A stretch of 64,000 bases of DNA from Alphaproteobacteria bacterium (GCA_017535105.1 JAFXUI010000001.1:80945-144944), one strand, 5' to 3'; positions 14,219-20,631 are shown, numbered from the stretch's first letter. Notes: generated by a model from the letters alone, not told the origin. Numbers and translations are program-made.

Positions 14219-14353
14219 TTATTTTTTCTTAAAGCCTTGTTTTGCTTTTAACTTTGGATTATCAGGATCAATCAAGATAACCTGTTTACCACGACGAATT
14301 TGTTTAATATTGCCGCGTTTTTTCCAAGCCTTTAATGAACTTAAAAATTTCAT
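14219..14353 (-). CDS. rpmJ: 50S ribosomal protein L36 (alpha/mitochondrial type, cysteine-free)
   Basis: 44-aa ORF absent from the ORF track: MKFLSSLKAWKKRGNIKQIRRGKQVILIDPDNPKLKAKQGFKKK; matches alphaproteobacterial L36 pattern MKxxxSLKxxKxRxxxxxxVRRxGxxYVINKxNPRxKARQG. Confidence 0.75.
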   Translation of the reverse strand: MKFLSSLKAWKKRGNIKQIRRGKQVILIDPDNPKLKAKQGFKKK

Positions 14354-14448
14354 ATCTAAATCCTTTTTGCAGGGGTGATTATACATGCTTTTTCTAAAAA
14401 ATCAAATAATTATTATATTTTTTGTTGTTTTTATTGTACCTGTTTATA

Positions 14449-14643
14449 TTGTTGAAAAAAGTTATTAGTAATTTTTTAACAAGTTTTTAACAATTTTTTC
14501 CCAGAAATCTAATATTTTTTAACAAATTGTTGAAAAAATAATCATTATTTTAACATGTTGAAAAATACCTATTTTTGAACCAAATAAACTTTTTCATAAA
14601 AACACTTTTTATACTTGTTAAAAATTGTTGAAATTATTATAAT
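14449..14643 (+). promoter_or_regulatory. AT-rich control region upstream of virB3: four copies of TTGTTGAAAAA (14449, 14527, 14555, 14625), interleaved TTAACAA motifs, promoter TTGTTA(14616)-16 nt-TATAAT(14638)
   Basis: Direct repeats seen in sequence; -35/-10 spacing 16; GGAGAG RBS before ATG 14663. Confidence 0.45.
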
Positions 14644-14662
14644 TCAATCATTCGGAGAGAAA

Positions 14663-14959
14663 ATGAAACAGCAAGTATTGAAAGCTTTGGCAAATCCTGC
14701 GCGCATATTTTACGTGCCGTATAATTTGGCCGTGCTTAATTTTGCCGTACAATTCATTGTTTTTATGATATTTTTTATGATTGATTTATTTATAAACCAG
14801 GCGAATATGACAATTTCACCATTGTATTTTTTAATATCGGTGATAATTGTTCATTCTGTGTTGGGTGTGTTTTGTAAAAGGGATCCGCAACTGGGTCAGA
14901 TTGTGGTGGCCAAGATTCAGTTGTTTAAAAGAAAAATACCGGGAAAATTGGTGGCGTAA
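14663..14959 (+). CDS. virB3: Type IV secretion system protein VirB3/TrbD family
   Basis: About 99 aa from ATG 14663 (ORF track starts earlier at 14615); LKALANPARIFYVPYNLAVLNF matches VirB3 motif (LxKGLTRPxMxxGVPy), two TM helices; stop overlaps virB4 start. Confidence 0.7.
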   Translation: MKQQVLKALANPARIFYVPYNLAVLNFAVQFIVFMIFFMIDLFINQANMTISPLYFLISVIIVHSVLGVFCKRDPQLGQIVVAKIQLFKRKIPGKLVA

Positions 14960-17380
14960 ATGAACGAATTTTTTAATTATTTTGCCGGTGGTGGATATTC
15001 TATAACCATGACGATTTTGGTTATGGCGGTTATTTTCGTATTTATTGTTTTAATGCTTTATATCCCATCATTGTCGCGCCGCATATTCCCAAGTTTTGGT
15101 TATCGTCATTATGCGAATTATTTGCCGTTCAAAAATGTCTATAATGATAACACGATATCTTTGACCGATGGGTCACTGTTGCGTGTGTATCGTGTGTCTG
15201 GTGTCCAGACCAGTATGCAAGATGACGCGACCCGCGAAAAATTCTTGGATTTACGTGCGCAATTATTTAATCAAATTCGTGATCCAAATGTGACGTTACG
15301 TTTTTACATGGTGCGTGATGCGGCGGCGGATAATGAAAACTATGAATTTGATAATCAGGTTTTACAGGGTATTTATAACAAATGGCGCGCCCAGGGTTTA
15401 CGTATATTTATAAATAATTATTATATTGTGATTTCTGTGGCTGGTGGTGGCGCGCGTGAAAAATTAAATCAATATTGTAATTATATTGAATCAATATTGG
15501 CGGCGTATAAACCAAAGGTATTGAATAATAATACACGTGATAATATGGCGCGATTCTTTGGTCGTATTTTATCACCGATAAGCAAGCCCGCCCCGGTCGT
15601 TGCCGATAATAAAATTGCAGAGGCAGTGACGGTTGACGATGTTATATTTGAACGTGATGGAATTGTCCGCTATGTCAGTGGGGGCGCGCAAATGTTTGCG
15701 GCGGCGTTATCTTTCCGTATATCGCCAGATTATCTGGACGAAGATTTCTTTAATTCAATATCAACCATACAAACAGAAATGATTTGTATGAATGGTTTTC
15801 ATATCATGGGAACGGCGGATATTGAATCAACATTTCGTCAACGTAAATCAACCGCAGACGAAAATGAAACATCTACATTGGCCCAGGTGTCGGCGGCGCA
15901 AAGTGCGATGGACGAAAACATTTCTGGAAACCAGAGTTTGGTAAATTACTATCCGCTGTTTGTGATATTTGGTGCGACCGTTGAAGAATTAAACAAGTAT
16001 GTTGATGAGTTCAAAAAGATATCGGCATCGTTTGGTGTATCGCCAATTGTTGAAACATTTGCGTCAAAGGTTTCTTGGTTTTCACAAATACCGGGATTTG
16101 ATGTTTTCCCACGCAGTTTCAAGTTGCTGTCAAAAACGGCGGCGGTTTGTATCCCGATGTCCAGCACGCCACGCGGAATTGAAAATTCTGATTGGGGTCC
16201 GGGACCATTGGTTGTTTTCCCAACGGCCCAGGGTACACCATATATGTTCCAATTCCATGTTTCAGACAAACCAACCGCGGTGGGACATACATTAACAATC
16301 GGTCCAACCGGTGGTGGTAAAACAACTTTGTTCAGTTTTTTAATCGCGCAATCGTTGCGTCACCCAAAACTGAAAGCGTTTTTCTTTGACAGAAACAAGG
16401 GTGCCGAAATATTCACTTTGGCGGTTGGTGGAAAATATATCACTATGCGGGGCAAGGAAAAGAATACCGATCCAATGGCGAAAACTTTTGAAACGCGGTT
16501 GAATCCATTAAAGATGCCGGATACACCGGAAAATCGCGCGTTTTTGCGTCGTTGGTTTGCGATTATATCGGGACAAAATGACGCGGCGTCCGCCGATGAA
16601 ATTGCACGTGCGGTTTCGGTCAACTTTGATTATTTGTCGGACAAGGATAGGGTGCTGAAAAACCTTTGGGAAAGTTGTTTTTCGTCCAGTGGCGAAATGC
16701 GTGCGCCATTAAAGAAGTGGGTTGACCCATTACAATATGGCGATATGTTTAATGAAGACAGCGATACACTTGATTTGGGTGCGCGTCTTACAACATTTGA
16801 TTTTACCGATATTTTACAGGACGAGGTTTTATCGCCTGCGGTTATTTCATACATATTGCACCGTATAAACACGACAACGGTATCTGGTGGAAATCCATCA
16901 CTTATTATGATTGATGAAACAGCGCCAATGTTGGAAAACAAAATGTTCCGCGATAACTTTATTGCCGGCTTACAAGAAGGGCGCAAAAACCGTCAGGCAT
17001 ATATGGTCGCGTTCCAGCGCGCAAACGTTTTGGATAAACTTGGTATTGGTGATGTTGTTCGTGGCCAGGCGCAAACGGTATTATTCTTCCGTAATCCAGC
17101 CGCCGATGCGGGCGACTATGCACATTGGAATCTGAACCCGTTGGAAATGGCATTTATCCAGGGCAAGGCATATCCAAACTTGAAACGTGCGGTATTGTTG
17201 TCGCGTCCGGTAAATGGGGAATCGGTCATATTAAATACGGAACTTGGTGGGCTGGGCAATTTATTGCGCCTGTTTGAATCGGGTCGTCCATCGGTATTAC
17301 TGGCCGAAGAATTGTATAAAATGTATGGCGCGAATTTTGTTGCGGAATATCTGAAAAAGCAATCTGGCGGAAATGTTTAA
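14960..17380 (+). CDS. virB4: Type IV secretion system ATPase VirB4/TrbE/CagE family
   Basis: 806 aa; Walker A GPTGGGKTTL, Walker B LIMIDETAP; size and architecture of VirB4. Confidence 0.9.
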   Translation: MNEFFNYFAGGGYSITMTILVMAVIFVFIVLMLYIPSLSRRIFPSFGYRHYANYLPFKNVYNDNTISLTDGSLLRVYRVSGVQTSMQDDATREKFLDLRAQLFNQIRDPNVTLRFYMVRDAAADNENYEFDNQVLQGIYNKWRAQGLRIFINNYYIVISVAGGGAREKLNQYCNYIESILAAYKPKVLNNNTRDNMARFFGRILSPISKPAPVVADNKIAEAVTVDDVIFERDGIVRYVSGGAQMFAAALSFRISPDYLDEDFFNSISTIQTEMICMNGFHIMGTADIESTFRQRKSTADENETSTLAQVSAAQSAMDENISGNQSLVNYYPLFVIFGATVEELNKYVDEFKKISASFGVSPIVETFASKVSWFSQIPGFDVFPRSFKLLSKTAAVCIPMSSTPRGIENSDWGPGPLVVFPTAQGTPYMFQFHVSDKPTAVGHTLTIGPTGGGKTTLFSFLIAQSLRHPKLKAFFFDRNKGAEIFTLAVGGKYITMRGKEKNTDPMAKTFETRLNPLKMPDTPENRAFLRRWFAIISGQNDAASADEIARAVSVNFDYLSDKDRVLKNLWESCFSSSGEMRAPLKKWVDPLQYGDMFNEDSDTLDLGARLTTFDFTDILQDEVLSPAVISYILHRINTTTVSGGNPSLIMIDETAPMLENKMFRDNFIAGLQEGRKNRQAYMVAFQRANVLDKLGIGDVVRGQAQTVLFFRNPAADAGDYAHWNLNPLEMAFIQGKAYPNLKRAVLLSRPVNGESVILNTELGGLGNLLRLFESGRPSVLLAEELYKMYGANFVAEYLKKQSGGNV

Positions 17381-20372: not shown

Positions 20373-20373
20373 A

Positions 20374-20390
20374 GGGTGGAGAGTGGATTT
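20374..20390. repeat. Duplicate of tRNA-fMet 3'-end segment (13-nt exact match GGAGAGTGGATTT to 20562-20574); att-like scar
   Basis: GGGTGGAGAGTGGATTT versus tRNA region TGGTTGCGGAGAGTGGATTT; a chance 13-mer match in 64 kb is expected about 0.002 times. Confidence 0.5.
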
Positions 20391-20524
20391 CCCTCGGCAT
20401 AAATGCCTGCGGGCAAATTTGTAGTTGCTTGAACTTCGCTTGCGCTTGTTCTCGCATACAAATTTTGAACCGGCAACTGCGTTGCGGGTCGCAAACCACG
20501 TCCAACAACAAATTAAATAAAAAA

Positions 20525-20547
20525 CACGCCACAAGGGCGTTTTTTTA
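20525..20547 (-). terminator. Terminator downstream of tRNA-fMet (bidirectional hairpin)
   Basis: ACGCCACAAGGGCGT flanked by A-run and T-run. Confidence 0.6.
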
Positions 20548-20554
20548 TTTAAAC

Positions 20555-20631
20555 TGGTTGCGGAGAGTGGATTTGAACCACTGACCTTCAGGTTATGAGC
20601 CTGACGAGCTACCGGGCTGCTCTACTCCGCG
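20555..20631 (-). tRNA. Initiator tRNA-fMet (anticodon CAT)
   Basis: Reverse complement CGCGGAGTAGAGCAGCCCGGTAGCTCGTCAGGCTCATAACCTGAAGGTCAGTGGTTCAAATCCACTCTCCGCAACCA; C1:A72 mismatch, near-identical to E. coli metY/Z. Confidence 0.9.

Follow-up and report, generated by a model that had tools for sequence, protein, structure and literature searches.

Introduction

Two described RNAs come close to the element reported here, which lies directly behind the initiator tRNA gene (tRNA-fMet) of an alphaproteobacterium: the RtT RNA of the Escherichia coli tyrT locus and the small RNAs of the 3'ETS-leuZ type. To our knowledge, no function has been established for RtT since its description. The 3'ETS-leuZ RNA is a small RNA from the 3' external transcribed spacer (3'ETS), or trailer, of a tRNA operon. 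In E. coli K-12 (tyrT locus, NC_000913.3), three 178-bp RtT units lie downstream of tyrV and a fourth copy is found between tyrT and tyrV. The downstream units each have a 5' segment GGGGAAGGAT antisense to their own tail, a piece corresponding to the T-stem 5' strand and T loop (CTTCGACCAAGGTTCGA) and an insert of about 77 nt, and close with a perfect copy of the final 19 nt of tRNA-Tyr (AATCCTTCCCCCACCACCA), which begins in the T loop. In the Rfam consensus of the family (RF00391), the 5' segment and tail pair to form a closing stem that surrounds two hairpins and leaves the final 9 nt unpaired. Only a brief mention of RtT was found in the literature; a preprint describes RtT as involved in processing of the tyrT transcript and possibly in the stringent response.

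The DNA analysed here, referred to as the window, is a stretch of 64,000 nt (GCA_017535105.1 JAFXUI010000001.1:80945-144944). A preliminary description had interpreted 14350-20631 as the probable remnant of an integrative element next to tRNA-fMet, on the strength of a 13-nt direct repeat of the tRNA 3' region. Our analysis makes it likely that the repeated 13-mer is the 3' tail of a structured, RtT-like tRNA-fMet trailer element of about 140 nt and not the scar of an island, and that the adjoining 6-kb segment is a composite of core and accessory DNA.

A repeat of the tRNA-fMet 3' region

ARAGORN and Rfam confirmed a tRNA-Met(CAT) gene on the minus strand with its 3' end at 20555, pointing to lower coordinates (Table 1). 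Its 5' CGCGGAG stands opposite 3' CTCCGCA-ACCA, and the resulting C1:A72 mismatch identifies it as the initiator tRNA. The 13-mer GGAGAGTGGATTT occurs exactly twice in the 64 kb, both times on the plus strand, and no third copy was found in the window even when one mismatch was tolerated. Read in the sense of the tRNA (AAATCCACTCTCC) it corresponds to positions 57-69, that is, to the T loop, the T-stem 3' strand and four acceptor bases, and it ends 7 nt before the CCA terminus. Outside the 13-mer the two copies differ on either side, the last 7 nt being GCAACCA in the tRNA and ACCCTAA in the second copy. The copies are 184 bp apart and enclose 171 bp, which places the second one 165 bp past the tRNA 3' end. 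The other four tRNAs of the window have no downstream copy of their own end and no such trailer. Coincidence as the source of the match, for which only the shortness of the 13-mer speaks, has practically no probability: no match arose in 100 shuffles, none is expected by chance, and dozens of species have the same tail in the same place, where it follows the allele of the local tRNA.

The second copy of the 13-mer reported by the preliminary description is thus real; its interpretation is another matter. The pair had been taken for the attR-type scar of an integrase that inserted the adjoining ~6 kb at the 3' end of tRNA-fMet and was later lost. We regard this as very unlikely and, for the 6-kb segment, it is already contradicted. 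A pair of att sites made by integration brackets the insert; here the pair brackets only the 171 bp and the proposed cargo (14350-20377) lies outside it, so the geometry contradicts the model. The repeat stops short of the tRNA end, and no distal repeat of at least 10 nt is present in 17.4-20.4 kb: when the tRNA plus 70 nt downstream was compared with ~11.6-22.1 kb (blastn-short, word size 7), only the 13-mer and AT-rich noise were returned. As the preliminary description had stated, there is no integrase; a Pfam scan detected neither PF00589 nor PF00239 in any open reading frame (ORF) of 14.2-21.7 kb. Instead, the repeat belongs to a conserved, covarying structured element that is present with or without cargo, as set out below.

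A proposed trailer element in Candidatus Enterousia

Related loci were fetched via VirB4, encoded in the 6-kb segment, and one genome per species was scanned, giving 80 species-level loci (VirB4 identity 77-90%) named Candidatus Enterousia or uncultured Alphaproteobacteria; L-numbers denote individual loci. Gut metagenome contigs encode VirB4 proteins identical to that of the window. We assign the genome of the window to Candidatus Enterousia, a member of the order Rs-D84 whose genomes measure about 1 Mb or less (PMC12306168).

Many of these species have repeats of 13-43 nt about 150-220 bp from the tRNA, and the DNA between the repeats is conserved. Profiles built from this DNA define two types, of which type A includes the window, L004, L009, L015, L083 and L084, and type B includes 25 species loci. 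The type-A profile matches the window at 20519-20376 on the minus strand, so that the element starts about 35-42 nt past the tRNA 3' end; it occupies some 140 nt on the tRNA strand between two terminator hairpins. Together the profiles match 34 of 84 non-redundant sequences (the window and 83 related loci), always on the tRNA strand. Among the 51 sequences with tRNA-fMet the element is found in 27, and in 22 of these it starts no more than 80 nt from the tRNA end. Scanning metagenomes with a type-A pattern added 26 contigs; a same-strand tRNA-Met is present in 20, directly upstream in 17 of them and about 130-1070 nt away in L097, L106 and L107, and the remaining six contigs are mostly short with no tRNA called.

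The full 20-nt tail is kept in most relatives, and the window keeps 13 of the 20 nt. Most copies are followed by a hairpin and T run of their own. L004 has a perfect 56-nt duplication made up of the tRNA terminator and the last 20 nt of the tRNA. L064, L080 and L092 have two copies in tandem or close together, and L026 and L056 a partial second one; in the window's 64 kb there is only one.

No known RNA accounts for this region. Neither ARAGORN nor Rfam returned a tmRNA, permuted tmRNA, signal recognition particle RNA or other known RNA in 20371-20554, at the gathering threshold or at E <= 5, and the tail is of the fMet type, not the alanine-type acceptor of a tmRNA. No matching Rfam family was found for the element, type B giving only spurious sub-threshold matches. 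The distribution is not that of a miniature inverted-repeat transposable element or other dispersed repeat, since there is one copy in 64 kb and the copies elsewhere are all tied to tRNA-fMet. A literature search found nothing on the Enterousia trailer element and, on Enterousia, only papers on genome reduction.

Predicted fold and covariation

The window element is predicted to fold as a four-way junction with a minimum free energy of -44.7 kcal/mol (z = -2.5, versus -1.1 on the opposite strand). The predicted helices are a hairpin GCAAC/GUUGC, a long hairpin AAAUUUGUA.../...UACAAAUUU, a hairpin GGCA-UUUA-UGCC, and a closing stem in which 20493-20504 pairs with the tail at 20377-20390, that is, with the 13-mer. 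The same fold, with the tail in the closing stem, is predicted in five further type-A members.

Type B differs in having an extra hairpin and a three-way core. Its RNAalifold consensus consists of a hairpin, a junction helix around two hairpins, and a closing stem of 5' UGGAUUU with AAAUCCA of the tail. In the type-B alignment (24 sequences), 95.7% of the cells at predicted pairs are paired, compared with 26-46% when partners are slid, and double-sided changes occur in 16 pairs against 3-4 with slid partners. The covariation score is 0.413, against at most 0.097 with slid partners, and none of 500 shuffles reached 0.413. The closing helix itself (alignment columns 14-20/131-137) is 93.5% paired. 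In the type-A alignment, also of 24 sequences, 98.6% of cells are paired (17-41% with slid partners) and 8 pairs have double changes (0-2 with slid partners).

A single covariance model for both types was tried and rejected, as the type-B model (R1) matches only the tRNA in the window and not the type-A element. This weak alignment to the tRNA-fMet gene (20555-20674, minus strand; 18.9 bits, E = 0.012) places the two inner hairpins of type B on the D and anticodon arms. It is probably driven by the shared 20-nt tail, and it could hint that the whole element is tRNA-derived.

Build, origin and likeness to RtT

All members share a segment at the 5' side pairing with the tail, a stretch that repeats the T-stem 5' strand and T loop exactly, a structured insert of 75-110 nt, and a tail copied from the final ~20 nt of the tRNA (T loop to CCA). 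A terminator of their own is usually present as well. L012 and L023 keep more of the tRNA, namely CTGAAGGTCGTTGGTTCAAAA (positions ~39-59), then an insert of about 100 nt and then AAATCCAACCCCCGCAACCA, and their sequence indicates that the element consists of a tRNA-fMet 3' part whose T loop is interrupted by a structured insert. Type B has an additional 17-nt segment antisense to tRNA positions 47-63, which is exact to the resident allele in four of the eight species compared (L076, L081, L017 and L085) and also in L020 and L064.

The 13-mer has seven alleles among the 51 species. In 17 of the 24 elements scored, or 18 of 25 when the window is included by direct inspection, the resident tRNA allele is the one that the tail matches exactly or most closely. 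The window allele is unique among the 51 species, yet it is present in the window's own tail. Taken with the perfect terminator-plus-tail repeats and the tandem arrays of L064, L080 and L092, this match between tail and resident allele points to gene conversion and unequal crossing-over. The element would have arisen when the 3' part of the tRNA was partially duplicated along with the terminator, and recombination at the tRNA-end and terminator repeats would then keep the tail like the resident allele and generate tandem arrays or losses. Transcription would start at the strong tRNA promoter (TTGACA-16-TATAAT) and read through the weak 5-bp terminator, and the element could be released as a stable, folded RNA of ~140 nt with a tail mimicking the tRNA end. 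Such co-transcription with the tRNA and processing to a discrete RNA are suggested, at the level of sequence, by the upstream promoter, the weakness of the 5-bp terminator and the hairpin that follows the element.

The Enterousia element has the same architecture as RtT. Both lie directly behind a tRNA gene on the same strand, as units of ~130-180 nt whose 3' end repeats the final 19-20 nt of that tRNA from a point in the T loop onward. Both contain an internal T-stem 5' strand and T loop piece followed by an insert of ~75-100 nt, and in both the tail is predicted to pair with an antisense segment at the 5' side; this closing stem surrounds the internal hairpins and keeps the acceptor and CCA bases unpaired. 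RtT units are tandemly repeated, and a few Enterousia loci have two copies in tandem or nearby, the window copy being single. The Enterousia element is derived from initiator tRNA-fMet in an alphaproteobacterium (order Rs-D84), whereas RtT is derived from tRNA-Tyr in an enterobacterium; it occurs as two structural types, usually has an intrinsic terminator for each unit, and lacks a Tpr-like small ORF. There is no sequence similarity between the two. The RF00391 model, which as a positive control gave four matches of 133-137 bits in E. coli, had no match in the window at 14000-21200 (E <= 5) or in L081 and L020 (E <= 1), and the Enterousia element is therefore not a member of the RtT family by sequence. 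The likeness to the 3'ETS-leuZ type is looser: a small RNA would be encoded in the trailer of a tRNA transcript and presumably freed by tRNA processing, but 3'ETS trailers are not known to copy the tRNA end or to adopt a comparable multi-helix fold.

The copied tRNA end also invites a reading as a miniature site-specific mobile unit, either an attP-like cassette with a tRNA-end mimic that a trans-acting integrase moved into the T loop of tRNA-fMet or a secondary att site, with the fold acting at the level of DNA or single-stranded DNA. The repeat boundary does lie in the T loop, reportedly a known crossover position of integrases; several genomes have perfect repeats of the terminator and tRNA end; type B contains a 10-bp inverted repeat around a 7-nt spacer that resembles a recombinase core site; and cargo follows just past the tail in the window, L009 and L088. 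We nevertheless think this improbable, as the element was never found outside the neighbourhood of tRNA-fMet, no integrase is linked to it, and two specific patterns had no match in 2.9 million viral contigs (IMG/VR). Covariation moreover reaches long-range and multi-branch helices, for which a double-stranded DNA site has no need, and the only integrase islands seen at this tRNA use a different, 48-nt att site.

An integration hot spot next to a conserved core

On its 3' side, tRNA-fMet borders a hot spot of integration and recombination that is common to the whole genus Candidatus Enterousia. The gap between the virB4 stop codon and tRNA-fMet can be as short as 629 bp (L018) or 771 bp (L062) and as long as 9361 bp (L070), and its contents vary by species, with rml genes, an outer-membrane beta-barrel protein plus S51 peptidase, an EcoRI-type methylase with a resolvase, ABC-F proteins or methyltransferases. 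In L047 the sole ORF scanned encodes RhuM. L070 and L078 have a 6.6-kb island at the same tRNA with RhuM and a P4-type tyrosine integrase (PF00589 and PF13356), set between perfect 48-nt repeats that span the tRNA from its anticodon arm through CCA. The island coordinates are 13436-20440 in L078 and 15139-21849 in L070, both contain a gene for a helix-turn-helix (HTH) protein, and the integrase gene adjoins the distal, partial tRNA copy and not the intact tRNA. L078 also has a group II intron reverse transcriptase/maturase and L070 a Schlafen/AlbA_2 plus HATPase_c_4 protein, which may be defence-type cargo. Other large intervals gave no integrase in the Pfam scan: two large ORFs without a match in L040, a methyltransferase in L028, S51 peptidase in L084, ABC-F in L051, a resolvase and EcoRI methylase in L074, and ORF395 without a domain in L009. 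Additional, decayed copies of the terminator plus tRNA-fMet 3' end occur in L009 (14845-14900; TGGTTGCGCAGTGTGCGCAGTTCACGAACC after LysR) and L008 (13500-13560) and suggest several past duplication or integration events at the locus.

These islands show that tRNA-fMet is a real integration target in the genus, and together with the decayed tRNA-end remnants in the hot spot of relatives they lend some support to the att-scar model. The window shares with islands of this kind a direct repeat of a tRNA 3' segment beside variable, AT-rich DNA, and the true examples lie at the orthologous tRNA. Their att site is the 48-nt anticodon-arm segment and not a T-loop boundary, they bracket their cargo and they encode an integrase, unlike the arrangement in the window. 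In L078 the true attR (the 48-nt tRNA piece) separates the integrase island from the trailer element, which must therefore be host DNA that predates the island. The element is independent of cargo, following the tRNA with or without it.

The 6-kb segment of the window is itself divided (Table 1). The left part holds virB3 (Pfam E = 6e-9) and virB4 (PF03135), which had been counted as mobile-element cargo, and a conserved 203-aa ORF (orf203). The order rpmJ-virB3-virB4-orf203 is kept in 80 of 80 species loci; ychF and a SufD-like gene form the left flank in most of them, and the 5' side of tRNA-fMet is always joined to DUF374-lpxK-lpxC. Because of these conserved housekeeping neighbours and a typical composition, the three genes are vertically inherited core DNA and not cargo, a finding that also goes against an integrated 6-kb unit. 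An integrative and conjugative element with a full type IV secretion system, coupling protein and relaxase was not found; the window has virB3 and virB4 only, and the rest of its 64 kb is housekeeping.

The characterisation as AT-rich, accessory cargo does hold for 17985-20377, which has a GC content of 0.341 (in the lowest 2% of windows of the same size) and a 4-mer z of +2.7 and is limited to the closest lineages apart from a homologue of one gene in L088. These ~2.4 kb (18.0-20.4 kb), with two HTH genes (HTHm and HTHp), a LysR pseudogene and a gene for an NT5C-type deoxyribonucleotidase, are lineage-specific accessory DNA in the hot spot, and their AT-richness and restricted distribution are what the att-scar model can claim from the window itself. 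The gene calls of the preliminary description for virB3, virB4, LysR and NT5C were confirmed by Pfam, and so were the paralogous HTH genes, which are in inverted orientation with 135-nt arms at 77% and about 72% protein identity. An ORF of the size of HTHp is found at the same position in the close relatives L116/L117 and L119. The frameshift in LysR is also genuine, a single-G deletion near 19578 relative to a sister strain (ATAAC-GTTTTCC versus ATAACGGTTTTCC) that recurs in a second assembly (L002); as the gene is intact in L003, L009 and L116/L117, and also in L119, this is a recent, strain-level pseudogenisation. Among the 80 species-level loci LysR is found in L009 only and NT5C in L088 only (63% identity, also beside the element). 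NT5C is present too in the 98% relative L116/L117, which has the same cargo. The window holds no trace of the route by which the 2.4 kb arrived, neither an integrase nor a distal repeat.

Table 1. Coordinates of features around tRNA-fMet in the window.
Feature	Coordinates	Strand	Evidence
rpmJ (ribosomal protein L36), left core neighbour of virB3 in every relative	14219..14353	-	Pfam
virB3, virB4 and conserved 203-aa ORF (orf203), core syntenic block	14615..17984	+	Pfam/NCBIfam; same order and neighbours in 80 species loci; GC 0.404, 4-mer z = -1.7
HTHm, small HTH protein	18028..18282	-	weak HTH_26 match; tblastn: L004, L008, L009, L010 (closest clade) only
HTHp, small HTH protein, paralogue of 18028-18282, accessory	18564..18824	+	among 80 species loci shared only with L009
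LysR-family regulator, inactivated, accessory	18869..19770	+	Pfam; alignment with L003
NT5C-type 5'(3')-deoxyribonucleotidase, accessory, third-position GC (GC3) 0.26	19788..20324	+	Pfam PF06941, E = 8e-9; PHROG 2643, E = 3e-24
Bidirectional terminator hairpin common to NT5C (+) and element (-)	20342..20366	.	own hairpin and T run also after most elements in relatives
RtT-like tRNA-fMet trailer element, type A	20374..20512	-	nhmmer E = 2.6e-42 against type-A profile; predicted fold; family covariation
Second 13-mer copy, tail of the element, mimic of tRNA-fMet positions 57-69, predicted closing-stem 3' strand; last 7 nt degenerate	20378..20390	-	sequence and fold; full 20-nt tail kept in relatives
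Short bidirectional terminator hairpin between tRNA and element; 5-bp stem, T runs on both strands	20526..20540	.	
Initiator tRNA-fMet gene, CAT anticodon, C1:A72	20555..20631	-	ARAGORN; Rfam tRNA, 64.2 bits; sequence
Original 13-mer within tRNA (T loop, T-stem 3' strand, start of acceptor 3' strand)	20562..20574	-	sequence search
Sigma-70 promoter TTGACA-16-TATAAT just upstream of tRNA; probably drives the tRNA and, by read-through, may drive the element	20645..20672	-	12/12 consensus positions match
Dispersed palindromic repeat copy between tRNA promoter and DUF374	20706..20831 (arms 20706-20756, 20802-20831)	+	

Other features of the region

The palindromic repeat beyond the tRNA promoter (GTCATYCCCGCGAAGGCGGGRATC..TGCCCCGCAGGG) is present four times in the window (11674-11721, 11843-11883, 12251-12291 on the minus strand, and 20706-20756) and once in L083. 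The copy at 20706 creates a spurious N-terminal extension of the DUF374 gene, the ORF at 20595-21713 having 372 aa compared with 192-279 aa in relatives. The repeat is reminiscent of Rickettsia-type palindromic elements.

The virB4 gene is divergent, scoring 380 bits against the 643-bit cut-off of TIGR00929, and the virB3, virB4 and orf203 trio stands isolated among housekeeping genes with no other vir genes within the 64 kb. A PilB/PilC-type (T2SSE/T2SSF) cluster is located at 24-28.7 kb. The DNA around the rpmJ-virB3 intergenic region is very AT-rich (GC 0.285 over 14-15 kb) and contains four copies of an 11-bp periodic AT-rich motif, ATTTTTTAACAA, at 14460-14536; this array lies upstream of virB3/virB4 and may be regulatory. 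In L024, L027, L036, L037, L052, L053 and L057 the rpmJ-virB3-virB4-orf203 block is inverted relative to its flanks, so that tRNA-fMet, DUF374, lpxK and lpxC are upstream of rpmJ and the sufD-like gene and ychF are downstream of orf203, with the tRNA-fMet/element region forming one inversion boundary. A single ORF of 591 aa at 47875-49650 (minus strand) joins a PilM/FtsA-like N-terminal part to a ribulose-phosphate 3-epimerase C-terminal part and is either a gene fusion or a merge of two genes by the ORF caller.

Weighing the trailer element

Several points weigh against the interpretation as a trailer element beside a composite segment. The RNA and its ends are putative, and so is any function. 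For the element itself no separate promoter is predicted. The search pattern fixed the nine outer pairs of the type-A long hairpin, and these do not count as covariation; the asymmetry between G.U and A.C combinations is weak (21:12 in type B, 3:5 in type A), so that the counts do not fix which strand is folded. As the type-B model misses type A, it is their position, common motifs and architecture that speak for homology of the two types. Of the 51 species loci with tRNA-fMet, about half (24) lack the element. In the closest relative, L116/L117 (98%), its 5' half is replaced by ~330 bp, and in the window the tail is without its last 7 nt; the element is therefore dispensable and may be decaying in the window lineage. 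Finally, since the loci were fetched via VirB4, the presence of virB4 in all of them is by construction.

Much of this would also suit a relic without RNA function: a tRNA pseudogene with a junk insert, left when the 3' end of tRNA-fMet was partly duplicated in tandem, that drifts while gene conversion maintains the likeness to the tRNA. The absences, the truncation in L116/L117, the degenerate tails of several copies, the lack of a predicted promoter and the resemblance of L012 and L023 to pseudo-tRNAs all fit such an origin. Drift would not, however, keep four to five helices intact by compensatory double changes in dozens of species, nor does it explain why most copies keep their own terminator or why two distinct types share one overall architecture that recurs in the RtT of E. 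coli. We therefore consider a functionless relic unlikely.

On the interpretation as a trailer element, its two types, with more than 50 members, may constitute an undescribed family of functional non-coding RNAs. Together with RtT they might form a general, independently evolved class of RNAs, each derived from the 3' third of a tRNA, carrying a structured insert in its T loop and a tail that mimics the tRNA end, and acting on the metabolism of its own tRNA. We offer this only tentatively and with more doubt than confidence. If true, possible modes of action would be through processing, competition for factors that bind tRNA ends, or pairing with the T arm.

Implications

The reading as an island remnant proved largely mistaken, and it holds a caution: a short copy of a tRNA end beside the tRNA is not in itself evidence of an integrase footprint. 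Comparison of the locus across Candidatus Enterousia maps a hot spot for integration and recombination at tRNA-fMet throughout the genus. It also supplies a second, sequence-unrelated example of the RtT architecture, derived from an initiator tRNA in a gut alphaproteobacterium with a reduced genome and represented by dozens of diverged copies with clear covariation. This comparative set from another lineage makes it testable how elements that mimic a tRNA tail arise, through duplication and gene conversion, and whether they are functional RNAs.

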